From positions 8,398 through 72,397 of the forward strand of contig LCEX01000008.1 in the NCBI GenBank assembly GCA_000995415.1: 64,000 nt of DNA. Direction: 5' to 3'. A program made the position numbers and the translations under genes. The notes under the pieces were generated by a model that worked only from the letters and a program-made list of their open reading frames with translations, made no database searches and had not been told where the DNA came from. Each line of letters starts with the position of its first letter. The first letter of the stretch is position 1. The DNA comes from Candidatus Gottesmanbacteria bacterium GW2011_GWC1_43_10. GTDB lineage: Bacteria > Patescibacteriota > Microgenomatia > UBA10105. This document shows positions 2,380-61,477 of the stretch, in pieces.

Positions 2380-3887
2380 TAGGGTAAGACACGATAAAAT
2401 TTTAGGTATGTGGGTCCATCGCCGCGTTGATATTGGGCAATGAGTTTAAGTGGCCAATACTCGGGTATTTGTTGCCTTTCTTTAAAGAGTAAGTACGTGG
2501 GTTGGACTTTGGCAGCCTCCTGAAGTTGTTTAGGAAAATCTCCACCAATCGGCCAAATTGGATCAAACTTGACGTTGGGATTTTTACCCAAATATAACTC
2601 CAAGGCCATCGGATACAATCCAAACGTACCTTCGGTTCCCACCAAAATTTGACCATGCTTGCTAGCTTCATCTAAATATGCCACCGCTTCCTTGATCCCG
2701 TAGCCGGCAGGCCAATCATTGATGTACTGTTGTCGGTCTGTGCTGGGAATTGGCGCATGAATCGGATCAAAAATAATCTGCCTGTCAAACCAAATCAATG
2801 GTGATATCAAAAGTACTGTTGCAATCATCAACCAGGTTCTATGACGAATTGTGGCTAATAAATGATCGCCGAATATGATGGTCGGGATAAGTAATGGAAA
2901 AACCATAAATAAAATAAACCGCGGATAGATCACTCGGCCAAATGCAGCCAAGGCAAAAAAAGGAATTATAAAATAGCCTAAGAAAAATAGTGCCCGACGC
3001 AAATTGTGTCTGATATACCAAATATTGGCAGCTAAAATAAGCAAACTTAGTAGCGGAGTCAAGTAACCCACCAACCAGGAAGTCAGACTCTTCAAGTTGT
3101 TATATAGATGACTAAGCGGAGCCCGTAAGAATTCCGCCGGAGTATAAATAAATTCCAAGTTTTTTTGGGCGATGATGTGGCGAAATTCTGACAGTCTTAA
3201 AATATTATTGTAAATCTGCGCTTGAAAAATGATGACTAAACATAAAAGTAACCACTTAAAGAGATTGGCTCCACGCTTTTTTGTGGGCCAGGGCGTAATT
3301 AATAAAGTCAGTGGCAGTAGCATCCAAAAAAAGTTAGCCGAAGATTTAGTCAGCAACCCTGCCCCTATAAAAGTACCCAAAATAAGAGCTAAATCCAATC
3401 TTTGCTTAAGCGCAAAAAGATATGTAAAAAAAAGCACCCAGATGGCAATCGCCGCAAGCAAAGCATCATAAATGGCTAACCTATCATACATCAGAAAAAA
3501 AGGGATTATAAGATATAACAGGCCGCCGATGATCACTCCACGCATCTTGCGCGTCAAATACCAACCAAACACACTTATGCCCACCATGCCCGTAAAACCG
3601 GCTATTATTGAAAGCAATCTCCCGGCAATCAAAGGATCGCTCATTACTTTTAACATCGGTAAAAGCAACCAAATGAAAAGTGGCTGTTTACCATCAACAA
3701 GCGAAATGAATCGCCACCGCGGATCAGCTAAGGCAATCTGTCCCCACCTTAGATATATAGCTTCATCGGTAAAAATCGGGATAATGGTTAAGTTGACTAG
3801 TCTGGTGACAAAATAAACCAGACTCAAACCAAGTGTCAACAAGACGTATGGAAAAATCAGTTTTATGTGTTTGTTCAAGTTGATCAC
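2379..3887 (-). CDS. GT-C family membrane glycosyltransferase (ArnT/PMT-like, GT39/GT83-type)
   Basis: 502 aa, polytopic. The first extracytoplasmic loop has an IFTDEAIYLRWG DE-motif typical of polyprenyl-phosphate-sugar-dependent GT-C enzymes. Confidence 0.7.
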   Translation of the reverse strand: MINLNKHIKLIFPYVLLTLGLSLVYFVTRLVNLTIIPIFTDEAIYLRWGQIALADPRWRFISLVDGKQPLFIWLLLPMLKVMSDPLIAGRLLSIIAGFTGMVGISVFGWYLTRKMRGVIIGGLLYLIIPFFLMYDRLAIYDALLAAIAIWVLFFTYLFALKQRLDLALILGTFIGAGLLTKSSANFFWMLLPLTLLITPWPTKKRGANLFKWLLLCLVIIFQAQIYNNILRLSEFRHIIAQKNLEFIYTPAEFLRAPLSHLYNNLKSLTSWLVGYLTPLLSLLILAANIWYIRHNLRRALFFLGYFIIPFFALAAFGRVIYPRFILFMVFPLLIPTIIFGDHLLATIRHRTWLMIATVLLISPLIWFDRQIIFDPIHAPIPSTDRQQYINDWPAGYGIKEAVAYLDEASKHGQILVGTEGTFGLYPMALELYLGKNPNVKFDPIWPIGGDFPKQLQEAAKVQPTYLLFKERQQIPEYWPLKLIAQYQRGDGPTYLKFYRVLP

Positions 3888-3980: not shown

Positions 3981-5504
3981 TTAATTCATGACCCGCAATT
4001 TTTCCCAAACTTCAATCTCTCCGGGAAATATTTGCTGCCAGATGAGTTGGCCGTCTCCCTCCCGCTCCGCCAACCAACTTCGTAGCCTACCGGTTTTCCA
4101 TGGATCCGGTTCAATGATGTAAAATACAGTCGCCTGCTCATCATCTCGATCAGCTGTAAAGGCGTATTCTTTATTTCCATACCACTTAAACAAGTAATGG
4201 TAGTTATAATCAATAACTGATGGGGAATAGACTTGGACGTTAAACGGTTTGCCGGAAGCTCTTTGATAAACCGTTTCGACAACTCGGATCTCGTTTTTAT
4301 AACTTGAGGCATCTCCAGCCCAAGGCTTGGCAAAAAATCTCCAAGGGGCCAAGTTGTAAAGCAATAAACTACTGATGATCACCCCACCCCAAATCCGGTA
4401 TTTTTTTACAAATATATATAACCCCATTCCGATGAGCGGCAGAACCAACGTCGGAAACATATTGATGTAATATTCCCACAGCGTCCCTTGATAAATGACT
4501 AAGTTAATCCCCAACAAACAAATTAGAACTAATAAAAATCTTAACGTTTTTTGTTTGCTGATTTCCTTTCCGCCGGCCATGATCATGATCAGTAATATTA
4601 TGCCGATAAGTTTATTGCTATTTACAAATGCATATGCCAGCAAATTGGTAATTGTCTGGATCCTATCACTCAGACGAACCAATAACGACATTTGGTTTAC
4701 TAAAGTCGGATGAGTCAAAAACTTAAACAGTGAGTACGTTTGGATCCAACTATGCCGCATTTCAAAAATCAGCCTGGGAATTAACCAAAAATCAAAACCC
4801 GCGCCTCCCAAAATCAGCTGTTTCATTTTGGGCAGCTGTCTGGTCAAAACCAACGTCAATCCAAAAACGGGCACAAACAAAATCCCTGCGGCGAGCTCAA
4901 ATTCGAAAATCGCACCCAAGACCGCTGCGACCCAAAACCACGGCCACCGGCCTTTTTGATATTTTACTAAACTTATGAGTAAAAGCAGCATCAGTAGTGG
5001 GACCAGATTGGGATGCCATAACTGAGCCCCAGTTGAGATGTAAAACGGCGATACAGACATGAGTCCCGCCAAAATTAATCCCAGTCGTTCATCTACCAGT
5101 TCTTTCCCCAAAATGAAGGCTAAAACTATGCTCGCTGCCGAAATCAGGTTGAAACTTGCTACCAACCACACCGGATCCCCCTTAAATATCCAGAATAAGG
5201 GTACTAGCAACCAATACCACCATACACCATGAAAAACTCCATCAATCCCTGTCGTCGGTCCAATCAAGGTCAAGTGACGGCCATTGACTATGTCATCCAA
5301 AGCCAAAAAATCTTTACCTTGGTCATAAGTAAAGGCAAAAAAACCATGTATAGTACCACTAAGTCGAGTGTAAATACCAATACCGACAAACAGACTTAAA
5401 AGCAGAATTGACTTGTGTTTTTTGATCCAACTTAAATCAAAAGTTTTTTGCGCCATATACTTAGTATTCCTACTGCAACGATCAAACTTAACCACATGCC
5501 CCAA
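3981..5504 (-). CDS. GT-C family membrane glycosyltransferase (ArnT/PMT-like paralog)
   Basis: 507 aa, polytopic. FAFTYDQGKDFLALDDIVNGRHLTLIGPTTG is paralogous to GFLGDEGRDMLVVKRMIVDHKLTLLGPITS of ORF 7444..8955. The true start is probably the internal Met near 5456 (MAQKTF...). Confidence 0.65.
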   Translation of the reverse strand: MGHVVKFDRCSRNTKYMAQKTFDLSWIKKHKSILLLSLFVGIGIYTRLSGTIHGFFAFTYDQGKDFLALDDIVNGRHLTLIGPTTGIDGVFHGVWWYWLLVPLFWIFKGDPVWLVASFNLISAASIVLAFILGKELVDERLGLILAGLMSVSPFYISTGAQLWHPNLVPLLMLLLLISLVKYQKGRWPWFWVAAVLGAIFEFELAAGILFVPVFGLTLVLTRQLPKMKQLILGGAGFDFWLIPRLIFEMRHSWIQTYSLFKFLTHPTLVNQMSLLVRLSDRIQTITNLLAYAFVNSNKLIGIILLIMIMAGGKEISKQKTLRFLLVLICLLGINLVIYQGTLWEYYINMFPTLVLPLIGMGLYIFVKKYRIWGGVIISSLLLYNLAPWRFFAKPWAGDASSYKNEIRVVETVYQRASGKPFNVQVYSPSVIDYNYHYLFKWYGNKEYAFTADRDDEQATVFYIIEPDPWKTGRLRSWLAEREGDGQLIWQQIFPGEIEVWEKLRVMN

Positions 5505-6580
5505 AATTGATACCGACCGGTAACCCCCCCATAATCACCAAACCAAAAGAAAGGCAAATAGCGTACCAATGTAGCCACACTCAAGGCTACGGCCAATACT
5601 TTGCAGGTGACTGATTGACTAATTGCGGCCAGTGCTACTAAGGGAATGATATACCAACTATAAGGTTCGCGTTGCCAAACTACCGGCAGCAAAACCAGTA
5701 ACCACAAATAGAAACTCCAAGGAACTAGTTTGTTTTGTAGTTTTTTGATTAAAAATAAAGGCAACAATCCGATACTTAAAAATTTGATGCTAACAGAAAC
5801 CATCAAAGTCAAAATCGACCAGGTAGCTTTGTGGGTAATAAATAAATATATTGCCAACAGAACCAAAGACAGCATCATTACCTCGTTGTGCGGACTCAAT
5901 AAACTTTCTACAAGTACCAGTGGATTTAAGGCAAAAAAAATCAGGCCGTGATCTATATTTGCCCCAGATACCTGTTTGAGGATTTTTTCAATCAACTTGA
6001 TATTCATCGCATGAAAACCCAAGAACATGAGTTTAAATAAAACCAATGTCCATACAAACTTCCCCAGGCCCAAATATGAGGGAATCAGGGTCAACCAAAG
6101 CCATCCTATTCCATACGGATAAAAACGGTGCGTCCAGCGCATGAATCTGATCCAGGGATCGGCCGGAAAATCTAAAGCGCGAAAAAATGTCGGATTCAGT
6201 CCATACTTGGTTACAATCCGCGCATCAAACATGTAGTTGAATAGGTCGTGCGAAAAGGCTGGGTAAGCCAAAATGAGCAGACTGGAAATACCGATCATCC
6301 ACCACATCTGTTTTCTGGTCATTACTTGTTTTTTGACTAACCACAAACTTAAAAAGTAAACCAGGAATAACCCTGTTAGTAAAACAACGAGAATCTGGGT
6401 TGATACTGGACGGTTAAAATAACCCAAGATTAGAAGCGGTTGCTGCAGTTTTTGATAAAATGCGTTCGTTGATAAAGTTAAATTTAAATCCACCTGCGAA
6501 TAAGAATAAACGGTTAGTCCAAAAATCAGGATAATTTCCAGTATCAGTAATGGAATAAGTTTGGTCGTTTTTGGTTTCAT
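5432..6580 (-). CDS. Polytopic membrane protein, possible GT-C fold glycosyltransferase (DUF2029/GT87-like)
   Basis: 382 aa, roughly 10 TM segments, motif SHDLFNYMFDARI...FYPYG. It sits within the glycosyltransferase gene array. Confidence 0.4.
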   Translation of the reverse strand: MKPKTTKLIPLLILEIILIFGLTVYSYSQVDLNLTLSTNAFYQKLQQPLLILGYFNRPVSTQILVVLLTGLFLVYFLSLWLVKKQVMTRKQMWWMIGISSLLILAYPAFSHDLFNYMFDARIVTKYGLNPTFFRALDFPADPWIRFMRWTHRFYPYGIGWLWLTLIPSYLGLGKFVWTLVLFKLMFLGFHAMNIKLIEKILKQVSGANIDHGLIFFALNPLVLVESLLSPHNEVMMLSLVLLAIYLFITHKATWSILTLMVSVSIKFLSIGLLPLFLIKKLQNKLVPWSFYLWLLVLLPVVWQREPYSWYIIPLVALAAISQSVTCKVLAVALSVATLVRYLPFFWFGDYGGVTGRYQFWGMWLSLIVAVGILSIWRKKLLI

Positions 6581-7341
6581 GTGGCAGAGTTCCGCTCGTA
6601 CATTCCCCTCAAACTATTAAGTCGGATGTGCAATATGTCTACCAATGCATCAAGTGAATCAAATAACGGGCTGACGCGCCTGGTTTCCACATAATGCCAT
6701 TCGACCGGGACTTCTTTGATTTTGTAGCCCGAACGGTTAGCCACAAAGAGTATTTCTACATCAAATCCTGCCGTCACCCGTGGTCCGCTCGCGTGTTTGT
6801 GTAAGTTATATAATTTCAATCTGGAAAAAACCTTTCGCGCCACCTCCCGCTTGAACAGTTTAAATCCGCATTGGGTATCTTCAATTCGACTTAAGCCCAA
6901 AATGAGATTTCTTACCAACATGAACCCGGGACCCATCAATCGACGTAAAAGCGGCGCTCCTGCCCGGCGACTTTTTCGCGATCCGATCACTACGTCGAAC
7001 CCCCGATCCAACCAGGGCAATAGTTTTTCAACCTGATCGATTGGGGTCGCCTGATCCAAATCCGTAAATAATATCCTGGCCCCTGTTGCTGCTAGCATCC
7101 CAGTAACGACTGTTCCAGCCTTCCCCTGATGCGTATTTTCGATAAGTCGAAAATGACTATTGCCGCCCACAAATTGCTTTATCAAGTCTTTGCTCGCATC
7201 GGTGGAACCGTCATCAACTATCAACACTTCCCAAACTAAAGGCTGTTTCTCTAAGTACCGGGCCACCTTATCCAAAGCTCCCAGGCGGATGTTTTGCTCT
7301 TCGTTGTAACAAGGAATTACTACCGATAATTGCGGTTGCAT
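6577..7341 (-). CDS. GT2 polyprenyl-phosphate sugar synthase (DPM1/ArnC-like, soluble form)
   Basis: LSVVIPCYNEEQNI...LIVDDGSTDAS GT-A DxD region, 254 aa without a C-terminal TM. Confidence 0.8.
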   Translation of the reverse strand: MQPQLSVVIPCYNEEQNIRLGALDKVARYLEKQPLVWEVLIVDDGSTDASKDLIKQFVGGNSHFRLIENTHQGKAGTVVTGMLAATGARILFTDLDQATPIDQVEKLLPWLDRGFDVVIGSRKSRRAGAPLLRRLMGPGFMLVRNLILGLSRIEDTQCGFKLFKREVARKVFSRLKLYNLHKHASGPRVTAGFDVEILFVANRSGYKIKEVPVEWHYVETRRVSPLFDSLDALVDILHIRLNSLRGMYERNSAT

Positions 7342-7443
7342 TGCCTAATTGTAGGTGAAAATGCCTATATTTGCAATCTAAACTGAGGGTAAGATATTAT
7401 TTCCACCCGAATCCTTAAGGCCCGCAGGCCGAGGGATCTTACG

Positions 7444-8955
7444 TTAAGGTAAGGGGTCAGTGACGGTTGGCTGATTTTCGCCTAAGTAATGTACCAATCT
7501 GAACACTTTAAACAATCCAACTTGCCATTCATCGGTGATTTCGGCTCGACCAAAACCGGCAATTTCCCATAAGGGGTGTCCCAACGGTTGACAAACTTTT
7601 TCTTCACAGACCACCAATAGCTGGTCAGTCACGGATTTGCGATTCGGATCGACCTTTGGATTCTCAATTACCACCGGTGGAGTTCCCATGATTTCCAAGA
7701 AGTAACGGTAGGCATGATCGGAATTTTTGTAGGCAATTAAAGCAAAATTATACGGTTTGCCACTTGTTTTGTCTAAAATAAATTGTGCTATCTCTTTAGT
7801 CTGGGTAACCAACCGATTTGGAGCAGCTAAAATCGGAGTCTGCTTCAACTCAAAATAACTCAACATCCCAACTACTAGTATCGCGATCAGCCACCCATAT
7901 TTGTTTTTCATGAGATGCGACAGGGCAATCGCGACCAATAAAAAAGGCAATGGAAAAGCAAACATCAAGTAGTAATCATAAATATTTCCGGTATAAAAAG
8001 AGAGCAATCCAATTCCCACCAGATACCAAATTAGTAAAACTATGAGCGCTCCATGTCGTCGCGGTTTATATTTGTTACTTTTGCTTAAATAAAAACAAAT
8101 ACCTAAAGTCAGCAATAGTACAACCGTAGCTATTCGCGCATTTTCGATGACGACTACCCGCCAAAACAATCTTAAGGTCAAGTCCCAAAACCTATAAAGT
8201 ACTGTGGTTAGTCCAAATGATTTGGCGTCTCCACCGCGCGTCACAAACTCATACACAGTGATCGTGTTGATAAACTGGTGTCTTACCTCAAATAATAAAA
8301 AGGGCAAGCTGCTTACAAATCCTCCAAACAACAAGCTTAACCAATAAACTAGCGGAATTCTAAAGCGTTTTAACCCTAAACAAACAAGGGTAATCGGAAT
8401 AAACACCAACGCGATATAATGTAACTGCAAAGCCACACCTATAGCCAAACCCGCTACAAATAAGAAGCGATAACGATCCTCACACATCACTTTTACTAGA
8501 CTGTACACTGTCAACAAGGCCCAAAACGGCAGAATGTTGGGGTTCCATGAGGAATGCGAATACGTGATCACGAGCGGTGACAAGGCATAAAGCAAAGAAG
8601 CAATTACTGCCACTTTGGTGTCGAAAAACTCCCGGCTCAATTTCCAGATAAGAAGAATTGTGGCTAATGAAAATAGTGCCACCATCACCGCCGGGCCCGT
8701 CGGATCTAGACGCCAAGCCCACAAAAATGGCACCATAAAGTAATAATACATGGGTCCCAGATGCATGAGGCCAACGCTGGTGATCGGTCCAAGAAGAGTA
8801 AGTTTATGATCTACGATCATTCGTTTGACCACCAACATATCCCGTCCCTCATCGCCCAAAAATCCCATGTAATCACCAATACGATAAAGCCGGAGATAGG
8901 CAGCAATTATGAGAATAATAAATAAAATAATATAAGGAAGATATTTTTTAAACAT
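7444..8955 (-). CDS. GT-C family membrane glycosyltransferase (ArnT/PMT-like)
   Basis: 503 aa, polytopic, GFLGDEGRD motif. Paralog of 3981..5504. Confidence 0.7.
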   Translation of the reverse strand: MFKKYLPYIILFIILIIAAYLRLYRIGDYMGFLGDEGRDMLVVKRMIVDHKLTLLGPITSVGLMHLGPMYYYFMVPFLWAWRLDPTGPAVMVALFSLATILLIWKLSREFFDTKVAVIASLLYALSPLVITYSHSSWNPNILPFWALLTVYSLVKVMCEDRYRFLFVAGLAIGVALQLHYIALVFIPITLVCLGLKRFRIPLVYWLSLLFGGFVSSLPFLLFEVRHQFINTITVYEFVTRGGDAKSFGLTTVLYRFWDLTLRLFWRVVVIENARIATVVLLLTLGICFYLSKSNKYKPRRHGALIVLLIWYLVGIGLLSFYTGNIYDYYLMFAFPLPFLLVAIALSHLMKNKYGWLIAILVVGMLSYFELKQTPILAAPNRLVTQTKEIAQFILDKTSGKPYNFALIAYKNSDHAYRYFLEIMGTPPVVIENPKVDPNRKSVTDQLLVVCEEKVCQPLGHPLWEIAGFGRAEITDEWQVGLFKVFRLVHYLGENQPTVTDPLP

Positions 8956-9082
8956 TATTTAGTTTTGTCATCCCACAATCTGCCGGCTGGCGGAGGGAAT
9001 TTAAATTATTATTTATAGATTATCCGATCCCTCCAAATGGAGACAGGCAAGTTGAATAATGACAAGGTGTCCGGCTTCATTT

Positions 9083-10177
9083 TTATTTCTTCCAAATGAA
9101 GCGGTTATAGATAAAGTAATTATAAGGAATAACTAAAAAAGCAATTGCAAAAATCATCAGTAAAAACCAAGCTGATTTGCCCCACAACCAAACACCCACT
9201 CCCACGACTACTCCTTGAATAATTACGGCGCCAATCGAAGTGCCCAAGAAATGAATAAATTTTTGGCTAAGTTTTGTGAGTCCGGATATGCGTTTGTGAC
9301 TAAATGTCCACAAATTGTTACCCAAAAAATTGGCGCAAATGGCAAAGAAAGAACCGATTGCCACGGCTATCCCGGGATTTATAAACTGGACGAGCACTTT
9401 GGCAATTATAGTTTGGACACTAAATCCGATGACGCCGATGACTAAATATTTAAGGAAGGTCGAGTTGTTCAAGATATACAGCAACAGATTTTTGATATAA
9501 TCAAAAGGAGCAATTTTACTTTTTCCATGAATCCGATCTGCAAACTGTTGTGGAACTTCGGCGATTTTAAATCCGGCAACTTTGGCTTTACGTAAAAAGG
9601 CGACTTGGAATGTATAACCGGAATATTTTTCCAGTCCTGCCTCAACTTCGGTAAACACCTGCTTTTTATATACTCTGTATCCGGAGGTCCAATCATGCGG
9701 GAGTAACATCCCCAATCCAAACCTAACTACCGTATTCCCAACAATACTATAAATCTTGCGGTGAATCCCCCAGTTTCCGGGGATTGAACCGCCGGGAATA
9801 TAACGACTACCAATCACTAAATCAGCACCTCTTTCCAGTTGATAAAAAAAATCCGGTAGTAGTAATGGGTTATGTTGCCAGTCTGCATCCATTTGAATAA
9901 AAATATCAGGCTGTAGATATTTGAACGCATAATTTGCCCCAAACATATAGGCAGCTCCCAATCCTTCTTTTTTCTTTGAAATCAAGATAATATTGTTGTA
10001 TCTTTTGGATAAATTTTCTACAGTTTTGGCCGTACCGTCCGGAGAGTAATCATCAACCACCAAAATCGTCAGTTTATATTTTGTAAGTTTTTGAAACACT
10101 CCTTCAATTGCTCCAATTAACGTTTCGACGTTGTCCTTCTCGTTATATGTAGGAAGAATTAATATGACATTTTTCAT
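9083..10177 (-). CDS. GT2 polyprenyl-phosphate glycosyltransferase fused to a C-terminal GtrA-like membrane domain
   Basis: N-terminus ILPTYNEKDNV...VVDDYSPDGT is a GT2 fold. The C-terminal 120 aa carry 4 TM segments typical of GtrA (KYLVIGVIGFSVQ...NNLWTF). Confidence 0.8.
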   Translation of the reverse strand: MKNVILILPTYNEKDNVETLIGAIEGVFQKLTKYKLTILVVDDYSPDGTAKTVENLSKRYNNIILISKKKEGLGAAYMFGANYAFKYLQPDIFIQMDADWQHNPLLLPDFFYQLERGADLVIGSRYIPGGSIPGNWGIHRKIYSIVGNTVVRFGLGMLLPHDWTSGYRVYKKQVFTEVEAGLEKYSGYTFQVAFLRKAKVAGFKIAEVPQQFADRIHGKSKIAPFDYIKNLLLYILNNSTFLKYLVIGVIGFSVQTIIAKVLVQFINPGIAVAIGSFFAICANFLGNNLWTFSHKRISGLTKLSQKFIHFLGTSIGAVIIQGVVVGVGVWLWGKSAWFLLMIFAIAFLVIPYNYFIYNRFIWKK

Positions 10178-10185
10178 ACAAGTTG

Positions 10186-11046
10186 TTACTTTTTGAAATA
10201 TTCCAGAGTTTTTGTAAGTCCTTCTTCCAAACCAACTTTCGCTTCCCAGTCGGTTTCTCCCCAGTAGTGAGAAACTTTTTTAATGATATTAAGTAGTTCC
10301 AAAATGGTTTTTTCTTCCGGGTTACCTAAATTGATCACTTCACCCCGAGCCGCAGGAGTTGTAAAAACTGACATGATTCCTTCTATTAAATCTGAAATAT
10401 AACAAAAACTTCGAGTTTGACTGCCATCTCCCTGAATAGTTAAAGGAGTACGCGAGAGAATTTGTTTAATAAAATTTGTTACCACCCTCCCATCATCTAT
10501 ATCCATTCTTGGGCCAAAGGTATTAAAAATCCGAATGATGCGGCCATCAAGCTGATATTTTCGGATATAAGTAGCCACAAAAGATTCACCCACCCGTTTG
10601 GCTTCATCATAACAAGAACGTGGACCATTGGGATTGACATGTCCCCAATAGGTTTCTTTTTGGGGATGTTCCCGAGGGTCTCCATAAACTTCAGAGGTGG
10701 AGGCAAAAATAAATTTAGCTTGCCAAACCCGAGCCTTCTCAAGTAAATAATAAGTGCCTATTGAGTTAACTAACAATGTTTCTACGGCATATTTTTGGTA
10801 TTTTGGGGGACTAGCTGGTGAAGCAAAATGGAAAATGACACTCGCCGAAATTGCCTCGGGAAGTGGTAAAGTCACATCATGTTCAATAAATTCAAATTTA
10901 GGTTGGGATAATAAATGTGCAATATTTTTCTTATGGCCCGTAACTAGATTATCAATGCAAACGACTTCGTGACCAGTTTCGAGTAATCGATCACACAAAA
11001 AAGATCCAATAAAACCAGCACCACCGGTAACAAGACACTTCATCAA
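10186..11046 (-). CDS. uxs: UDP-glucuronate decarboxylase (UDP-xylose synthase)
   Basis: Extended SDR with GGAGFIGS. Near-identical blocks to UXS1: ASTSEVYGDPREHPQKETYWGHVNPNGPRSCYDEAKRV, RIFNTFGPRMDIDDGRVVTNFI, GDGSQTRSF, NLGNPEEKTILE. Confidence 0.85.
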   Translation of the reverse strand: MMKCLVTGGAGFIGSFLCDRLLETGHEVVCIDNLVTGHKKNIAHLLSQPKFEFIEHDVTLPLPEAISASVIFHFASPASPPKYQKYAVETLLVNSIGTYYLLEKARVWQAKFIFASTSEVYGDPREHPQKETYWGHVNPNGPRSCYDEAKRVGESFVATYIRKYQLDGRIIRIFNTFGPRMDIDDGRVVTNFIKQILSRTPLTIQGDGSQTRSFCYISDLIEGIMSVFTTPAARGEVINLGNPEEKTILELLNIIKKVSHYWGETDWEAKVGLEEGLTKTLEYFKK

Positions 11047-53810: not shown

Positions 53811-54377
53811 ATGGCAAAAAAAGGACGAAGCACCTCTCAAATTAAATGGCTCGTAATCCCGCTTATACTTATTGGTCTGGTGGCAGCATTTGTTTTCTTT
53901 AAAGGGAATACTGAAACAAAACCATCTGAAAGCACTGCATATCGGGTTTATCAAAATTCAGAGATTGGTTTTAGTATCAGCTATCCCGAGAGTTGGGAAT
54001 TAAGAAGTGATACTCAAGCATTTGAAAATGGAGATATCGTATCCTTCAATAAAACCGGCCCGACCCAAAAAGCCCAAACAGAGATAACTGACGGAGCGCG
54101 CTTAAGTATCGCTATACCATTTGCGATCAACACTGATCTTAAATCCTGGTTAAAAGACAACTTTAGTAATGAAGCAAAATTTTCGCAAATGACGTTTGGT
54201 GGTGTGACTTTTGAACAAGTAAATGAATGCTATATTGGCTGTTTTATATACTTCTATACACTCAAAGATGGGAAAGTATTTGGAATGGCTACTTTTGCCG
54301 CAGGCGATGACAGCTATAAAATGGTTTATGAAAATGCGCTCTTGACCATGCTTAAATCATTTAAGTTTGACAATTGA
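53811..54377 (+). CDS. Secreted or membrane-anchored hypothetical protein (SYPxxW motif family)
   Basis: N-terminal TM. GFSISYPESWELRSD motif is shared with ORF 54839..55690 (YEISYPKNWQLDES). Confidence 0.45.
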   Translation: MAKKGRSTSQIKWLVIPLILIGLVAAFVFFKGNTETKPSESTAYRVYQNSEIGFSISYPESWELRSDTQAFENGDIVSFNKTGPTQKAQTEITDGARLSIAIPFAINTDLKSWLKDNFSNEAKFSQMTFGGVTFEQVNECYIGCFIYFYTLKDGKVFGMATFAAGDDSYKMVYENALLTMLKSFKFDN

Positions 54378-54490: not shown

Positions 54491-54802
54491 CTATCTCATG
54501 CCCGCAGTAAATAGAGCGAGAATTGAAAAGGTAGCAAATAGTGACACTGCGATACTAAATCCGTTTAAAACCACGGCAATATACGCCAAATAACGGCTCG
54601 TCACAAACGGCCTAGCTGAAAGTCTTTTTTTACCTAAGAAACCTTCGTAACCCAAAGGAATCGCGATTTTTTTCTCCGGCATTTTGAGTGCAGCGATAGA
54701 AAGAAGTAACCCTGGAATTGAAAGAAGTAGACTAAACACGCCAGTCAGAGCTAGTACAAATGATAGGATTCCCAAAATATAAGCCGCGATCAGTTTATTC
54801 AT
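54491..54802 (-). CDS. Small membrane protein
   Basis: 103 aa, 3 TM. Confidence 0.35.
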   Translation of the reverse strand: MNKLIAAYILGILSFVLALTGVFSLLLSIPGLLLSIAALKMPEKKIAIPLGYEGFLGKKRLSARPFVTSRYLAYIAVVLNGFSIAVSLFATFSILALFTAGMR

Positions 54803-54838: not shown

Positions 54839-55690
54839 TTATTTTACTGCATTCCATGTATCAGTGGCTAAATCTTGACGCTCAACTACCCATGTCTTGG
54901 GACTCACGCGGTACCAGTTAAAGGTTGTCGTATGGTCGGGAAATATTTCGTAAACTTGAACTACATAATATGGTATTTCTATGGTTGGCGACCGGTCAAT
55001 GCGAACAGTAAAAACTGAACGATCTCCAATGTCTACCTGTTTTTTAAAGGCAATTACTTCCGCAACTTTTTCCACAAGATTGCGCGCTTTGATTTCGTCT
55101 GCATTTGGTCCAGTGCTTTTGAATGACTGGATAATATTAGTTATGGCCTTAATATCTTCCCCCTGCTCAAAATTGATTCGAACGGTGTAAAAATCCCCTG
55201 ACTCGCCAAAAAATGTATATTCACTAAACTCCAGCTGTTTTCCTTCTTCTTTAAATGTTCCCTCTATCAAAAAAGCTTGGTTGCCATTGATTTCCACACT
55301 TTCATCAGAAGTAATTGAGTAATCCCGATTTTGGTCATATGCATCCATCAGGTTTTTGATAAGAGCTGTTTTTCCGCTATCTGAGGTCAACCGCTGATCA
55401 TATTGCGGCTGTATATATACTTTGACGCGCTTTTCAGGACTGACTATGATAACCGCCGGCGCTTCCTGTTTTGATTCATCAAGTTGCCAATTTTTTGGAT
55501 ATGAGATTTCATAACCATTTCCTTGATACACAATAAGGCCCGATCCACTATTTGAATTGCCAATCTGCTGCTCCAAAGAATACTTTGGTGAACGATAGAA
55601 TATAATAACGACCACTGTCACTAACACCGCGCCAATCACCCACCATAAAGGTTTAATAGTTATTTGTTTGCTTTTCTGTTTCTTTTTCAT
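54839..55690 (-). CDS. Secreted or membrane-anchored hypothetical protein (SYPxxW motif family paralog)
   Basis: N-terminal TM, YEISYPKNW motif. ATGA overlap with the upstream RDD gene. Confidence 0.45.
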   Translation of the reverse strand: MKKKQKSKQITIKPLWWVIGAVLVTVVVIIFYRSPKYSLEQQIGNSNSGSGLIVYQGNGYEISYPKNWQLDESKQEAPAVIIVSPEKRVKVYIQPQYDQRLTSDSGKTALIKNLMDAYDQNRDYSITSDESVEINGNQAFLIEGTFKEEGKQLEFSEYTFFGESGDFYTVRINFEQGEDIKAITNIIQSFKSTGPNADEIKARNLVEKVAEVIAFKKQVDIGDRSVFTVRIDRSPTIEIPYYVVQVYEIFPDHTTTFNWYRVSPKTWVVERQDLATDTWNAVK

Positions 55691-56670
55691 TGTTTATTTT
55701 TCACCGCCGTTATTTTTTTACTTGGAATAAGTTTATTCTCTTGCAAAATCGAAAAAACTAGCATTCCTACCAACCCAGAAAATAATAATCCAAACCAAAT
55801 TCGCCATAACCAGATAAAAAACTGACCTTTGATAACTAAAATATCAACTTTATTGTCTCTATCAAAATCAAAGCCATCGATCCGGCCATCGTTGTTTAAA
55901 TCAATAGATTCAGCTACTCCATCAGAATCTGCATCCATGGTCGTAAACTCAACCACCCGATCATTATTCAAATCATATTTGAACACATCGGCTTTTCCAT
56001 CTTCATCTGCGTCAATTGCTAACCCATCAATAAGCGTATCCTGATTGAGATCAACAAACGTTACCTGATTACTCTCAACATACTTAGTTAGCTTTTCACC
56101 AAAGCCATGTATTATTAAAGTCATTAAAAAAAACCCAACTAATCCAAACATTCCCAATTGAATTTTTGGTATCGAATTCTTCTCAAACTTTTCCACATAC
56201 TCAACTTTCGTTTTTGCAACAAAGTCATGAAGCGCCCGCTTGTCTTTTTTATCAAACAAAATTGTAACCCAACCTATCATCAAAAACGCAAACATACAAA
56301 ATCTAACTAATATTTGCCACACTTTTAACGGCTTTTCGTCCTGTGAAATAATTTTTATGCGAACAAGCATCATCGCCGGAGTAGCTCCAAAAAATAGCCA
56401 GAAGAAAAAGAAATATGCCAGAGAAATTAAAATGATGATATATCCAGCACTTGTGAGACTACCACGAAAGGCAAGCAAACTCGTGAGTATATCAATGATA
56501 GCCAAGTCTGTACCCAAACAAATAGCGCGCACCCAAATCCCAGCCGGTTCACTTTTTTTAATCTTGTCTTGATTTCTTTTGCGGATAAATATCAGTAATC
56601 CCACTCCTACCACAGTAGTCAATAATCCGCTCAAAACTTGCCAAACAATAGAAAATTCTAAAATTTGCAT
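55687..56670 (-). CDS. RDD-family membrane protein with C-terminal extracellular Ca-binding (dockerin/EF-hand-like) Asp-rich repeats and terminal TM
   Basis: WVRAICLGTDLAIIDIL...DKKDKRALHDFVAKTKV RDD block. DADEDGKADVFKYDLNNDRVV...DADSDGVAESIDLNNDGRIDGFDFDRDN repeats. Confidence 0.6.
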   Translation of the reverse strand: MQILEFSIVWQVLSGLLTTVVGVGLLIFIRKRNQDKIKKSEPAGIWVRAICLGTDLAIIDILTSLLAFRGSLTSAGYIIILISLAYFFFFWLFFGATPAMMLVRIKIISQDEKPLKVWQILVRFCMFAFLMIGWVTILFDKKDKRALHDFVAKTKVEYVEKFEKNSIPKIQLGMFGLVGFFLMTLIIHGFGEKLTKYVESNQVTFVDLNQDTLIDGLAIDADEDGKADVFKYDLNNDRVVEFTTMDADSDGVAESIDLNNDGRIDGFDFDRDNKVDILVIKGQFFIWLWRIWFGLLFSGLVGMLVFSILQENKLIPSKKITAVKNKQ

Positions 56671-56674
56671 AGTT

Positions 56675-58435
56675 TTACCAAGAAGAGGTTAACCAACCTG
56701 ATACATTTGAAACCATATTTCCCCACGTTTTAAAACCGGTGAAAACAGTCGAGACGTTATCTCTGATGTTCATCACAATTGCTACCGGAACTGCACCAAC
56801 TACAGTCCCAACCAAACCAACGGTAGCCTCTAGTTTTTCTCCAAATCCCTGGGCGTTCCTAAAGTCGTCAAATGCGACCCCAATCGCCCCACCCACATTG
56901 GTCCAATTTCCGGTTTTGATCATCGCACTAGTTGTGATTTTAACAAATGCTTTCGGAGAATTCTTAGATAAAAATCCAGTAACTATCCGTACCGGATTGT
57001 TTTTTGGTATACCAAATAAAGCCAAAAATGCATCCGGAATATTTGCGATCATATCCGCTAATTTAAGTGGTGGGAAGAGGGTAAATAAACTAGGTGCGGC
57101 TGTGTCTATAGCTGCTTTTGTGGCTGCGTCATCTACTGATACACCTGCTCCGACCATGTCCATAAACGCAATTAGGCCGTTTCCCACATCAGTAATAAAA
57201 GAAACTTGGTTGTAGGCGCCGAACTTGCCATTATCTAGATATTTTTGCAGTTTATCGGCGTTTTTATATGTTGTGGCTGCATCCCGCACCCATTCCAATA
57301 CTCTCCGCGCAGCTTGTAAGTAATCTTTTGGGGGTACATCCGGAGTTTGGGAAACTTGATCAAGTTGGGCGTTATATTTATCGGAAAATTTTTGATCTGC
57401 TTTTAATCTATCCAGATCTGCCTGAGCTACTTGGAGTTTATTCATCACATCAACCAAAGCTGCAAAGTCTTTGGATGAAAGTCCGATTTGGGGTTTTGTA
57501 GAAGGCTTACTCTGATTACGTACTTGCCTAGTCTCCCAACAACTACTATCGCAACTGCTTTTTGTCTCACGGCAAGCAGTTTCACAATCAGGAGGCGGAC
57601 TCGGGGGCGGTAAGTCACACTTGTCTAAACAGGTGTTTTTATTAAGCTTTATCTCGTCAACACACGTTTTATAAGGCGCGTCGCATTTTTGCTGGATTTC
57701 TCCATAACACGGGCTCGCATCTATGGCTGTCCCCCAACAAGGATGACTTCCATCAGGGTTTTTACGATTGGTGATCCCATCAGCGCATGTGGATTTGGTA
57801 TCGAAACAACTGTTAACGGCAGTAGAATAAGCAGCATCATATTCGGATTGACATCTATCTCTACAGGCCTGAGGATCTTCTGGAGTTGGCTGAGGCACTG
57901 GTAATTGCTCATCACATTGGTCAATGCAGACATCAAAGTTTGCTTGACAACCCTCATGACACGCCAGTTCTTCTTTTTCTTCATCTGTCAAATCAGGAGT
58001 TATCGGATCGGCTGAAGGGCTGGGCTTAGGAGTACTGGCCACAGCGATTGAATAAGTCGCGGAATCCTCATGTTCTGTACCAGGTAAGTCTACGCATTCG
58101 GCAGTATCATAGTTGTTGTTCAAAAAAGTCACGGTGATGGAACCATCAGAGGTGACGGTGCCATTTGCGGGCTCGTCATGATCAAGACCTGGACATTCAT
58201 CAGCAATTAAATGTTGGGTGCCAGTGAAAGTCGTGCCGGTTATCGTGCCGGAAAGGACTACGATACCCGGGGGGCGTGATTCTCGAGGCGTTGTTGTTTT
58301 TATAATGATACTGTTGCCTGTTCTTTGCACTTCGAACTCACTACTACCGTCTGTCCAACGCTCTTCTGCTGCCACCGGTACAACAGCCATAAACATTCCT
58401 AAAAAGGTTAACAATAAAACAATGAGTTTTTTCAT
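56675..58435 (-). CDS. Secreted Cys-rich protein with conserved C-terminal helical domain (paralog A)
   Basis: Signal peptide, beta domain, Cys-rich segment of about 30 Cys, coiled-coil segment, and a C-terminal domain of about 250 aa with hydrophobic stretch VGLVGTVVGAVPVAIV shared with ORF 59420..60898. Confidence 0.6.
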   Translation of the reverse strand: MKKLIVLLLTFLGMFMAVVPVAAEERWTDGSSEFEVQRTGNSIIIKTTTPRESRPPGIVVLSGTITGTTFTGTQHLIADECPGLDHDEPANGTVTSDGSITVTFLNNNYDTAECVDLPGTEHEDSATYSIAVASTPKPSPSADPITPDLTDEEKEELACHEGCQANFDVCIDQCDEQLPVPQPTPEDPQACRDRCQSEYDAAYSTAVNSCFDTKSTCADGITNRKNPDGSHPCWGTAIDASPCYGEIQQKCDAPYKTCVDEIKLNKNTCLDKCDLPPPSPPPDCETACRETKSSCDSSCWETRQVRNQSKPSTKPQIGLSSKDFAALVDVMNKLQVAQADLDRLKADQKFSDKYNAQLDQVSQTPDVPPKDYLQAARRVLEWVRDAATTYKNADKLQKYLDNGKFGAYNQVSFITDVGNGLIAFMDMVGAGVSVDDAATKAAIDTAAPSLFTLFPPLKLADMIANIPDAFLALFGIPKNNPVRIVTGFLSKNSPKAFVKITTSAMIKTGNWTNVGGAIGVAFDDFRNAQGFGEKLEATVGLVGTVVGAVPVAIVMNIRDNVSTVFTGFKTWGNMVSNVSGWLTSSW

Positions 58436-58436
58436 T

Positions 58437-59411
58437 TTATTTTTTCCCGGTTATCATATTAAGAAATTTGTTTTCCTTAATAATTGTAAAAACGAGCAAG
58501 GATACAAAACCTGCCACCCCGACACCAAACAGGACTTTCCTCAACAAGATAGCATTTTGACCATCGGCAACTTTTACATCCAATATGTTGTCATTATCAA
58601 AATCAAAACCATCTATTCTTCCGTCATTATTTATGTCTAGAGACTCAGCCACTCCATCTTTATCAGCGTCAAAAGTAGTCAAGTCAACCACGCGATCGTT
58701 GTTAAGGTCATATTTGAATGTATCAACAACGCCATCATTATCAACATCCATAGTCAATCCATCCGACAAGCCATCATTATTAAGATCAAAAAATGAGATT
58801 TGATCATTTTCGGTAATCCCCGTCAGTTTTTCTCCCAAACCACCAATAATCAAACCTATCAGTAAAGCAATAGTCAGGCCAAGGAGGACAAACTTAAGTT
58901 TGGGCACCCATTTATCGACTTGGCTTTTTTCTGTTTTTTCGGTAAAGACAACCCGGGTTTTGGACACCAAATCATGCAGGGCTTTCTTTTCTTTCTTATC
59001 AAAAAGCAGAGGTATCCAGCCAATAAATAAAAATATAAACGTCATCAGTCTTAATGTCACTTGCCACACTGTGAGCGGCTGACCGTCTTGGGAAACGATT
59101 TTTATCCGAGCTAAAATCATCGCCGGAGTCGCTCTAAAAAATAGCCAAAAGAAAAAGAAATAGGCCAGTGTCACTAAAATCGTCACGTGTCCACTAGCTG
59201 CGAGAGTTCCGCGATAAGCCACTAAACTTAGCAAAAGATCAATAATCGCTGCATCTGTTCCAAGACAAATAGCCCGTACCCAAAATCCTGCAGCTTTGTT
59301 TTCCTTGACATCGTTATCAGCTCTTTTACGAAAAAAAGTAATGAAGCCAACACCTACTACTAGTGTCACTAAGGCGCTTATAAATTGTGCTAGAATCAGA
59401 AATTCAAACAT
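58437..59411 (-). CDS. RDD-family membrane protein with Ca-binding Asp-rich repeats (paralog of 55687..56670)
   Basis: FWVRAICLGTDAAIIDLL, DKKEKKALHDLVSKTRV, DVDNDGVVDTFKYDLNNDRVVDLTTFDADKDGVAESLDINNDGRIDGFDFDNDN. Confidence 0.6.
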   Translation of the reverse strand: MFEFLILAQFISALVTLVVGVGFITFFRKRADNDVKENKAAGFWVRAICLGTDAAIIDLLLSLVAYRGTLAASGHVTILVTLAYFFFFWLFFRATPAMILARIKIVSQDGQPLTVWQVTLRLMTFIFLFIGWIPLLFDKKEKKALHDLVSKTRVVFTEKTEKSQVDKWVPKLKFVLLGLTIALLIGLIIGGLGEKLTGITENDQISFFDLNNDGLSDGLTMDVDNDGVVDTFKYDLNNDRVVDLTTFDADKDGVAESLDINNDGRIDGFDFDNDNILDVKVADGQNAILLRKVLFGVGVAGFVSLLVFTIIKENKFLNMITGKK

Positions 59412-59419
59412 ATGACTAT

Positions 59420-60898
59420 TTAATCAGGTGATGTGAACCAGCCGGATACTAACTGACCTGCCCCACTTGCTCCCATCTTAAAAAGCTCAACCGCTGCCAA
59501 CACCTGATCTCTGGTGCGCAGCGCGATCGCCACCGGTACAGCCCCAACCGCCGTACCAACCAAATCCAGGGTTGCTTTAGCTTTTTCGCCTACACCTTCT
59601 GCTTCTTTGAGATCTTGCCAAGCAACTTGAAATGCGCCGCCGACATTGGTCCAAGTATCTGTTTCGACCATCACAGTAGTGGTGAGTTCAACAAAAGCGC
59701 TTGGCGAGTTATCAGCCAAAAAACCGGTGGTGGTGCGTGACCAGTGATCTTTAGGCACACCTACTGCTCCCATAATATCATCAGGCAGAGTCGCTACCAG
59801 ATCAGCGGCCTTAAGCGGCGGAAAAATGTAAAACAAACTCGGAGCTACCGTATCTATAGTTGCTTTAGTAGCAGCATTTTCAAACGACTCCCCTTCATTC
59901 ATGAGATCAATAAATTCGATGACTCCTTCACCAACTTCAGCGACCTTGCCGGCCCGACTACTCGGACCCAAACCTTTACCTTGTAAGTAATTACCCAGGT
60001 CTTCAATATCTCCTGGGACTCCGGCTGCATCCTTGATATATTCCAAATCGGCGCGCATAACTTTGAGTTGTAATTCTGTTTCACTGGGAACATCTTTTAA
60101 TGCTGCCTGGTAACTATTAGCAAAATTATTTTTAGCTTCCCAGGCTGGATCATTTGCGGCTTTGACTTTTTCCAACTCAGCTTGAGCCGCTTGAAATTCA
60201 TTCATTGCCCGCAGCAATGATTTCAAATTTTTTGATGAAACCACTCCTGTTGGAGATTCTTGAGGTGACTGCGGCTTTGATACCGCGTCTGCGGAAGAGT
60301 TGCTATTTGCATCTAAACAGGCTTTCAAATCATCACTGGCCACTTCACTACACGTTCTATCTTCTGTTTCACACTCCTCAGAGCATTTTTTTTGGTTGTC
60401 TAAATCTGTGCAATCCCAAATACAGCTAGTTCGTGTTTGTACACACTGATATTCTGTGTCTTGATAAGCTCTATAACATTCTTCTTGAGATTTCGTATTA
60501 GAAGGCTCTTTTAACACCGCGTCTACTGAAGTATTTTCCTCTTCTTTTAAACATGCTCTATAGTTTGCCTGCACCTGCTGATCACAAGCTTCTTTGGCCG
60601 GGTCACACGTATTTTTTTGACATTCGAGATTGACCTTACCGCCATCTACCGAAAGGCTGGCGGCTTTATTAGCCTTGTCGACACAAGAGTTGATACATGA
60701 CGAAGATTCTACCAAACATTTGTAAAGTTCCTTATCAAATATACTTTGACAATCATCGTTTGCTTGCGCGTTGGCTGTGGGAAGCAAAAAAAATAAAGTA
60801 ATAAAGATAACCCAAAAAAAGATGGGTACCACAATCAAACTCGGCAGGATGAATTTTTTCATTTGATGAACCCTATCTCTCATATAGTATATGCACAC
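59420..60898 (-). CDS. Secreted Cys-rich protein with conserved C-terminal helical domain (paralog B)
   Basis: Signal/TM, Cys-rich region, coiled coil, and the C-terminal block TVAPSLFYIFPPLKAADLVATLPDD...TWTNVGGAFQVAW...LVGTAVGAVPVAIA. Likely start is the Met of MKKFILPSL at 60862. Confidence 0.6.
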   Translation of the reverse strand: MCIYYMRDRVHQMKKFILPSLIVVPIFFWVIFITLFFLLPTANAQANDDCQSIFDKELYKCLVESSSCINSCVDKANKAASLSVDGGKVNLECQKNTCDPAKEACDQQVQANYRACLKEEENTSVDAVLKEPSNTKSQEECYRAYQDTEYQCVQTRTSCIWDCTDLDNQKKCSEECETEDRTCSEVASDDLKACLDANSNSSADAVSKPQSPQESPTGVVSSKNLKSLLRAMNEFQAAQAELEKVKAANDPAWEAKNNFANSYQAALKDVPSETELQLKVMRADLEYIKDAAGVPGDIEDLGNYLQGKGLGPSSRAGKVAEVGEGVIEFIDLMNEGESFENAATKATIDTVAPSLFYIFPPLKAADLVATLPDDIMGAVGVPKDHWSRTTTGFLADNSPSAFVELTTTVMVETDTWTNVGGAFQVAWQDLKEAEGVGEKAKATLDLVGTAVGAVPVAIALRTRDQVLAAVELFKMGASGAGQLVSGWFTSPD

Positions 60899-60976
60899 GA
60901 AAAAATAAAAAGCAAGAATTTCTTGACGCGGTATCTGTGTTTTTGATAACCTAACATCAGGAAAATAAAAAACGAT

Positions 60977-61477
60977 ATGAGCTCAACTCAATTTTGGGTA
61001 GCTGTATTTGTGCCGCAGATTATAGAGCGGATTAGTCCTCATTTTAAACGTCTGTTCGCCCTCAAGGAGTTTGACTCTCAAACACAACAACGAGTATCTT
61101 CCAAGGAGTATCCAGCTTTTTATGCGCTTTTATATCTTTTGTGGGGCATTAGTTTGATAAGTTTCGGCTGCGTGCTTCTTCTATTTATAATCATTTATAT
61201 GACTCAGCTTGTGCCTCAAGAAAAATATGGTCTGATCATTTGGTTCGGGCTGATTATGTTTTTGGGCTCGTTTATGATTCCCGGAGCCTTACTTGATTTC
61301 CTGTTTTGGAGCATTTCTCCGGAAAACTTTAGAGATTATGTCAAATTCAGACTCATCAAATCCGGCTGGGGATATGAAATGCGTGATCAAATAATGACAC
61401 TTTTCAAAATTGGTCTCATCTATCTCCTACTGACTTCGCCTCTGGTTATCTACTTATTATATTTATTGTTCCGTTAG
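60977..61477 (+). CDS. Hypothetical membrane protein
   Basis: 166 aa, 3-4 TM, no motif recognised. Confidence 0.35.
   Translation: MSSTQFWVAVFVPQIIERISPHFKRLFALKEFDSQTQQRVSSKEYPAFYALLYLLWGISLISFGCVLLLFIIIYMTQLVPQEKYGLIIWFGLIMFLGSFMIPGALLDFLFWSISPENFRDYVKFRLIKSGWGYEMRDQIMTLFKIGLIYLLLTSPLVIYLLYLLFR

Follow-up and report, generated by a model that had tools for sequence, protein, structure and literature searches.

Nearly obligate pairing of genes for a helical C-terminal domain and an RDD-family membrane protein in Microgenomates bacteria

What do two look-alike gene pairs, each made of a gene for a large secreted protein and a gene for a membrane protein of the RDD family, encode, and do the two partners of a pair belong together? 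The question was raised by a stretch of 64,000 nucleotides (nt) from Candidatus Gottesmanbacteria bacterium GW2011_GWC1_43_10 (contig LCEX01000008.1, positions 8,398 to 72,397; hereafter the window), in which four open reading frames (ORFs) on the minus strand form two diverged tandem units, each consisting of a large protein (bigA or bigB) and then an RDD protein (rddA or rddB). RDD (PF06271) is a membrane protein family of very large size that has hardly been characterised. Both large proteins end in a conserved helical domain, here called bigC, and both RDD proteins belong to a subfamily with an acidic C-terminal extension, here called RDD-Ca. We found that bigC and RDD-Ca are a genuine, nearly obligate gene pair. 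With a probability of roughly 0.5, we favour the explanation that the two proteins assemble into a heteromeric complex of the envelope, with bigC as the part of the secreted protein through which the RDD protein docks or controls it.

Pairing of bigC and RDD-Ca across genomes

Unit B opens with bigB (59420..60898, minus strand), a secreted Cys-rich protein whose ORF runs from GTG 60898 and whose probable start is ATG 60862 (MKKFIL..., 480 aa), the MKK start being common to all homologs. Its partner rddB (58437..59411, minus strand), a polytopic RDD-family membrane protein of 324 aa, starts 8 nt past the bigB stop. One nt past the rddB stop begins bigA (56675..58435, minus strand), the secreted modular protein of unit A (586 aa), and 4 nt past the bigA stop begins rddA (55687..56670, minus strand), again a polytopic RDD-family membrane protein (327 aa). 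The tandem arrangement of two diverged units, reported in the initial annotation, was confirmed: bigA and bigB shared 35% identity over 438 aa (E 1e-73), and rddA and rddB shared 57% over their full length (E 2e-119). No further copies of either family were found elsewhere in the window.

Loci for comparison were taken from the contexts of big and RDD homologs and, independently, from metagenomes searched with the RDD alignment. All six reading frames of every locus were then screened for ORFs matching hidden Markov models (HMMs) of the two families, and duplicates were collapsed. Results showed that RDD-Ca directly follows bigC on the same strand in 19 of the 20 bigC genes with readable downstream sequence, and that bigC lies upstream of every RDD-Ca gene with readable upstream sequence (19/19). 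In most loci 1-15 nt separate the two genes; the spacer is longer in L032 (33 nt) and in L006 (~94 nt). Pairing was kept in L008, P0107/L011 (L012) and P0112/L032, where bigC shares no more than 23-30% identity with the copies in the window and the large proteins have unrelated N-terminal parts. The remaining neighbours (a 103-aa protein, PsbP-like proteins and a ~160-aa protein) were shuffled between genomes, and only the bigC/RDD-Ca adjacency was invariant. The strict pairing claimed in the initial annotation thus held up with one exception; the refuting case named there, one family occurring apart from the other, was seen once (L030/L031), where no RDD gene lies within 6 kb of bigC. The pair was confined to a few groundwater lineages of the Microgenomates type within the candidate phyla radiation (CPR), and the family is small. 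No account of this pair was found in the literature searched, in agreement with the earlier statement that the combination is undescribed; that statement had missed, however, a precedent for an RDD protein with an upstream partner, namely SppA-SppI (PMC7568657).

The secreted partner and the membrane partner

Alignment of the homologs of the large proteins showed that the N-terminal modules are swapped or absent, and that the last ~270 aa, corresponding to the C-terminal helical domain proposed earlier, are conserved. The bigC domain of bigB (59423..60262, minus strand; ~280 aa, all-alpha, C-terminal) was recognised with an HMM E value of 9e-136, and that of bigA (56678..57499, minus strand; residues 313-586) comprises 11 predicted helices, including a conserved small-residue helix VGLVGTVVGAVPVAIV. 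In full-length members, proteins of ~350-760 aa, bigC was C-terminal, and most of them carried a hydrophobic N-terminal signal. A HMMER profile search of 1.84 billion representative proteins returned 36 clusters, one of them spurious; P0110 (3100 aa) was rejected as a bigC homolog because it is a spidroin with a low-complexity match. Further searches gave at least 2 loci (genome-contig scan) and at least 3 matches (profile-based homolog search). When the window proteins were scanned, the large proteins, bigC included, had no family match in Pfam, NCBIfam, PADLOC or PHROGs, and 37 bigC proteins compared with Pfam gave no match to Peptidase_S49 or another family. Sequence and profile searches of bigC against the PDB found nothing.

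The bigC model, built from a 37-sequence alignment, was all-alpha with 11 helices, a mean predicted local distance difference test (pLDDT) of 67, a predicted template modelling score (pTM) of 0.54 and a core at 70-83. Fold searches with this model found nothing in BFVD and no fold match among solved structures. An AlphaFold2 (AF2) model of full-length bigA, built on 9 sequences, placed the bigC part below pLDDT 50. The colicin-like or other toxin fold that had been suggested for bigC was therefore not recovered, at the moderate confidence of the model. Judged by sequence searches and modelling, bigC is a putative new domain family, with no recognisable fold and no detectable sequence relatives beyond a narrow group.

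The stretch of bigC described earlier as Gly-zipper-like resembled a transmembrane (TM) segment in close relatives (Kyte-Doolittle 1.6-2.5), but not in distant members, where values fell to 0.8-1.4 and Arg/Lys residues were present. A conserved C-terminal TM anchor formed by this helix was ruled out by the family-wide hydropathy. The near-invariant residues of bigC were mostly Gly/Ala/Pro/Val, and those conserved in the helix were G235, V239 and A/P nearby; the helix suggests a tightly packed core or interface element rather than a conserved membrane anchor. Because it is not conserved as a TM segment and most members carry a signal, the conserved state of the protein appears to be secreted and anchorless, and retention at the surface would therefore need a partner.

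Hydropathy supported an N-terminal signal peptide in bigA and bigB, and also the terminal hydrophobic segment of the RDD proteins, both as annotated before. The signal peptide of bigA is followed by a beta domain (58046..58363, minus strand; residues ~25-130), for which AF2 predicted eight strands at pLDDT 85-90. The same domain is missing from bigB, so that the beta domain once assigned to the large proteins in general remains valid for bigA. Next in bigA comes a Cys-rich region (57521..57988, minus strand; residues ~150-305, 18 Cys), predicted to form long helical hairpins at pLDDT 60-88. Total cysteine counts were 20 for bigA and 16 for bigB, lower than the ~30 initially given, with a spacing of mostly C-x3-C-x6-C-x3-C and C-x10-C-x6-C-x3-C. 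What had been called a coiled coil was seen in the models as just long predicted helices of low confidence.

A Foldseek comparison of the bigA beta domain with the PDB gave weak matches to lipocalin-like and streptavidin chains (E 8e-3 to 0.4, probability 0.9-0.99, target TM-score 0.37-0.52), none at E 0.001. The beta domain was also present in P0005, where it is duplicated, and in P0007 (L005 3888-5267) and P0008, where it is N-terminal and joined to a different C-terminal part, with neither bigC nor an RDD neighbour. This lipocalin/avidin-like domain thus behaves as a mobile ectodomain module. Since P0007 and P0008 share only the beta domain with bigA and lack both bigC and an RDD neighbour, the link is specifically one of bigC with RDD-Ca.

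On the membrane side, family membership of the two small proteins was upheld by PF06271 scores of 47.4 bits for rddA (E 3e-12) and 44.4 bits for rddB (E 3e-11) at a cut-off of 24.1. Seventy full-length RDD homologs were collected (40-92% identity, all ~310-340 aa), and PF06271 was precomputed in all but one of them. The Pfam RDD domain of rddA (56212..56544, minus strand; residues 43-153) contains the triad R48/D55/D149, which was invariant in a 28-sequence alignment; H148, which precedes D149, was invariant or nearly so. A conserved Arg at the start and an Asp in the middle of the first helix, together with a C-terminal His-Asp, have been defined for RDD proteins in the same work that provides the only biochemical report on the family, a Na+(Li+,K+)/H+ antiporter (PMC5996927). 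Elsewhere the role of RDD has been called unknown, and a conserved intramembrane binding site facing the cytoplasm and fusions to signalling domains have been described (PMC12419801).

Each RDD protein of the window carries six D-x-[DN]-x-[DN] loops at a spacing of 11-13 residues, more than the 3-4 DxDxDG loops of the initial annotation. They lie at 55843..56052 in rddA (minus strand; residues 207-276) and at 58578..58787 in rddB (minus strand; residues 209-278), in the latter flanked by hydrophobic segments 5 and 6. Six loops per protein fit the DxDxDG-type pattern, which has its acidic ligands at positions 1, 3, 5 and 9. The Asp/Asn/Gly positions were invariant in the last three of the six, and 14 of the 27 invariant columns of the RDD-Ca subfamily fell in the acidic region (residues 231-276). 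Pfam comparisons stayed below threshold for EF-hand_5 (E 0.069, 13.1 bits vs 25.9), Dockerin_1 (E 0.032-1, at most 14.9 bits vs 22.9) and FG-GAP_3 (E 0.016, 16.2 bits vs 26.9), and lanmodulin appeared at E 0.096 in a PDB profile search. We regard the loops as putative Ca-loop-like motifs, not as demonstrated EF-hand, dockerin or FG-GAP members.

Six hydrophobic segments were seen in RDD-Ca, the terminal one being present in rddA and rddB alike. The mean number of K/R per loop in 30 homologs was 0.3 (L0), 5.8 (L1), 0.8 (L2), 3.4 (L3), 9.4 (L4) and 3.6 (L6), and a plain six-TM topology broke the positive-inside rule in both orientations. From the charge pattern we infer that the third hydrophobic segment may not span the membrane, which would leave four K/R-rich loops inside and put the acidic loop outside. 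Prediction of the third RDD helix is likewise ambiguous and inconclusive for SppI of B. subtilis (PMC7568657).

Divergence of the two units and their surroundings

Identity between units A and B (bigC 44%, RDD 57%) matches that of the units to single-copy orthologs in other genomes, and therefore either the duplication is old or one unit was acquired. Two units were found only in this genome and in the near-identical sibling Gottesmanbacteria assembly L033 (GCA_000998235.1), which is 99.9-100% identical and has both units; the other sampled genomes had one copy. Synonymous divergence (dS) between the units was saturated (1.9-2.5), nominal dN/dS was well below 1, and nonsynonymous divergence (dN) was 0.34 for RDD, 0.50 for bigC and 0.91 for the Cys-rich region. 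The diversifying selection proposed in the initial annotation is not supported, because synonymous sites between the units are saturated, and the RDD protein is strongly conserved. Mean identity was 57% for the RDD partner vs 42% for bigC, and RDD still kept 42-43% where bigC was at ~20-27%.

Exchange between strains was visible in the contig L013 (1-3826), whose flanks and almost all of rddA are 100% identical to the window at the nt level. Its bigC showed 93-100% nt identity per 100-nt segment, with a protein identity of 97% and a dN of 0.002. Two patches departed from this background: the Cys-rich region of bigA (residues ~176-338, window 57420-57906), with 57-71% nt identity and indels, and rddA codons ~81-185 (window 56130-56420), with 76-85% identity. 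The high dS in both patches indicates alleles imported by recombination, not local fast evolution. Gene conversion between the units was rejected as the source, since unit B shares just 73% identity with the rddA patch and has no match to the bigA patch.

Two deletions distinguished L033 from the window. One of 117 nt, in frame (L033 5838-5844 vs window 58731-58840), removes 39 aa of rddB, taking away the last part of hydrophobic segment 5 together with the first acidic loops; the other, of ~109 nt (L033 3745-3748 vs window 60941-61049), lies upstream of bigB. They represent genuine variation in the population or errors of assembly. A hypothetical protein that belongs to Candidatus Gottesmanbacteria GW2011_GWB1 (CPR/Microgenomates) was 100% identical to bigA.

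Downstream of rddA lies a gene for a membrane-anchored PsbP/LpqN-like protein of 283 aa (54839..55690, minus strand), the start of which overlaps the rddA stop by 4 nt, and after a 36-nt spacer a gene for a 103-aa two-TM protein with a sub-threshold DUF4190 match (54491..54802, minus strand). The best sigma-70-like promoter match upstream of bigB (61019..61048, minus strand) agrees with the consensus at 10/12 positions and is a consensus match only. This site and the tight gene spacing make a six-gene minus-strand operon from 60862 to 54491 plausible. Other neighbours in the window were ordinary chromosomal genes: secA and genes for an alpha/beta hydrolase, YibE/F, a glucose/sorbosone dehydrogenase and a cupredoxin. 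The order secA ... pair ... PsbP-like ... hydrolase recurs in a distant genome (L006), and the locus is embedded in normal chromosomal synteny (secA, hydrolase, YibE/F; lspA-lgt in L011) rather than on a mobile island. Scans of the window for tRNA, Rfam families and tandem repeats found nothing relevant.

A second membrane-anchored PsbP/LpqN-like protein is encoded at 53811-54377 (plus strand), so that the 103-aa gene is flanked by both PsbP/LpqN-like genes. PsbP/LpqN-like homologs recur near the pair in most loci, at positions that vary between genomes; in a CPR bacterium that lacks photosynthesis, domains of the PsbP type are uncharacterised. The 103-aa two-TM protein was 64-78% identical across genomes, better conserved than either member of the pair. 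In many loci its gene lies no more than a few kb away from them, upstream in some and downstream in others; the protein may represent a third component.

At some other loci the flanks held genes of a different kind. In L030/L031, lgt (5160-5957) is divergent from bigC, and the gene after bigC (7302-9806) encodes a secreted protein of 834 aa that has a long poly-acidic linker and matches no Pfam family. In L011, lspA-lgt lies downstream of the RDD gene (9168-10309). Lipoprotein maturation genes beside the module in two distant lineages hint at a link with envelope protein processing. The Roizmanbacteria contigs L001 (end 7912) and L009 (end 6849) stop ~40-60 nt past bigC, at the place where RDD would begin, and these ends may mark where assembly broke off in an RDD gene that is repeated or polymorphic. 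L001 also encodes, ~2.5 kb upstream of bigC, a 778-aa protein combining PrsW-protease and PT-TG (pre-toxin TG) domains (1164-3500), adjoining the gene for a CarboxypepD_reg-like protein of 698 aa.

Weighing a proposed heteromeric envelope complex

How such a complex would be built can be outlined from the parts. The large protein would be exported by its signal peptide. Its N-terminal modules appear interchangeable, being a lipocalin/avidin-like barrel, disulfide-type Cys-rich hairpins or, in distant relatives, another beta and helical-repeat region, and it always ends in the ~270-aa all-helical bigC. The lineage-specific C-terminal extension of RDD-Ca, consisting of the fifth hydrophobic segment, the ~100-aa acidic six-loop region and the last hydrophobic segment, would be the binding site for bigC. 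By analogy with SppI acting on SppA, the RDD protein may retain its secreted partner at the membrane surface, regulate it, or do both. Such a complex would display the variable ectodomains, which would bind a ligand or a partner cell, and the tandem units would represent two versions of it that are old and cannot replace each other.

Several lines of evidence argue for a physical complex of this kind. The operonic pairing is near-obligate across deep divergence; the secreted partner is anchorless, and the RDD protein is most conserved in an acidic loop that is best placed outside; the ectodomains are variable and recombining in a housekeeping-like genomic context; L013 has imported a divergent Cys-rich ectodomain allele while its bigC stayed nearly unchanged; and SppA-SppI provides a precedent in which a shared operon, a membrane complex and control of the partner by the RDD C-terminal region come together. 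Among the functions first proposed, an adhesin/anchor pair or a Ca-dependent surface complex fits these data best. The more specific proposal, a CPR-specific Ca-dependent surface display in which the six-loop RDD ectodomain docks bigC and swappable ectodomains serve attachment to a host or ligand, is tentative, and we think it possible with the odds clearly against it. It recalls cohesin-dockerin and EF-hand systems in its repeated D-x-[DN]-x-[DN]-G-x-x-D loops and in the docking of a modular secreted protein by a dedicated domain, but here the loops sit in a membrane protein, at 11-13-residue spacing and without dockerin helices, and bigC lacks a cohesin-like beta fold.

Other observations weigh against the envelope complex. 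The Ca-loop motifs are below every Pfam threshold, and the bigC model is of moderate confidence. If RDD-Ca had the plain six-TM topology and the usual cytoplasmic RDD N-side, its acidic loop would be cytoplasmic, away from the secreted partner. Charge complementarity between bigC and the acidic loop was considered and rejected, as bigC was acidic in 6 of the 7 members examined; the bigC of bigA is near neutral (27 K+R, 25 D+E). The exceptional bigC gene, P0090 (L030/L031, the latter from assembly GCA_964452565.1), has no RDD gene within 6 kb on a 709-kb contig, and adjacency among related genomes could partly stem from shared ancestry.

A rival reading is that there is no functional coupling at all, the genes being independent and their adjacency inherited synteny among related Microgenomates. 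All loci do come from one narrow clade, in which the 103-aa and PsbP-like neighbours recur too, and one bigC gene has no adjacent RDD gene. Yet the two genes stay adjacent where bigC identity is down to 20-30% and all other neighbours have been shuffled or replaced, the genes lie on the same strand with tight spacers or overlaps in most loci, this RDD subfamily always has bigC upstream, and the pair was duplicated as a unit; we therefore consider the absence of coupling very improbable.

A closer competitor is regulation of the SppA-SppI type, with bigC as an extracytoplasmic membrane-associated enzyme or effector and the RDD protein as its inhibitor or as a sensor of Ca2+ or an intramembrane ligand. 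In B. subtilis the RDD protein SppI (YteJ) is encoded just downstream of SppA, complexes with it and inhibits it via its C-terminal region (PMC7568657). The likeness lies in a PF06271 protein encoded directly downstream of a membrane-associated extracytoplasmic partner in the same operon, and regulated activity would also agree with the conserved intramembrane binding site and signalling fusions of RDD proteins (PMC12419801), with the invariance of R48/D55/D149 in the subfamily, and with a bigC helix that in close relatives is hydrophobic enough to span or insert in the membrane. The partners differ, however: SppA is an S49 peptidase, whereas bigC is a novel all-helical domain with variable N-modules, has no match to a catalytic-looking family or fold, and has near-invariant residues that are mostly structural. 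SppI has a 25-aa tail, whereas RDD-Ca has an extra N-terminal TM segment, the ~100-aa acidic six-loop insert and a terminal TM segment; for SppI the partner complex is known, and for RDD-Ca and bigC the evidence is gene adjacency. We rate a purely regulatory role as rather unlikely, and it overlaps with the favoured envelope complex, being inseparable from it by sequence alone. The RDD antiporter of Halobacillus andaensis shares the Pfam family, three hydrophobic segments and the conserved R/D/D with RDD-Ca, but it is a stand-alone protein of 178 aa without an acidic loop domain or a bigC-like partner (PMC5996927); its gene adjoins a putative sppA (PMC7568657). Ion antiport does not explain an obligate secreted partner.

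The initial annotation had also raised toxin/immunity, in which bigC would be a colicin-like pore-forming toxin, the N-modules would bind a receptor, the RDD protein would confer immunity and the two units would be two specificities. We consider this unlikely, less so than an uncoupled pair. A helical C-terminal domain that is conserved and buries a Gly/Ala/Val-rich hydrophobic helix, variable N-modules, and an integral membrane protein encoded directly downstream do echo the pore-forming colicins, and the two diverged units in tandem, the allelic mosaicism between strains and a weak CAMP-factor Pfam match in one bigC member (E 0.005) would fit as well. The ten-helix bundle with a buried hydrophobic hairpin that characterises colicins was not seen in the moderate-confidence bigC model, however, which has a single helix of this type, no hairpin, no conserved hydrophobicity and no fold similarity. 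PADLOC, PHROGs, Pfam and NCBIfam gave nothing in favour of a toxin. The putative immunity protein is the better conserved partner and large, with a conserved ectodomain-like loop; sampled genomes have one copy save this one and L033, and no flank contains orphan immunity genes; the context is chromosomal, syntenic and stable, beside secA or lspA-lgt; and the low nominal dN/dS also speaks against it. Polymorphic toxins have a conserved N-terminal trafficking region, variable C-terminal tips and fast-evolving immunity genes, often in orphan cassettes. Here the polarity is reversed, with a variable N-terminus and a conserved C-terminus, besides the better conserved partner and the lack of orphan cassettes in the flanks.

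The pairing of bigC with RDD-Ca is a new instance of a theme, an RDD membrane subunit with an upstream extracytoplasmic partner. The family is small and narrowly distributed, and its function is inferential. As a second independent lock between an RDD protein and an extracytoplasmic partner, it would support a general role of RDD as a partner-binding or regulatory membrane subunit, and surface display, if true, would extend this to a general role of the family as membrane subunit of extracytoplasmic protein complexes. CPR bacteria rely on contacts made at the cell surface, and their surface proteins are largely unknown; a conserved handle, bigC with RDD-Ca, on variable and recombining ectodomains may offer a concrete candidate for attachment or ligand capture in these organisms.

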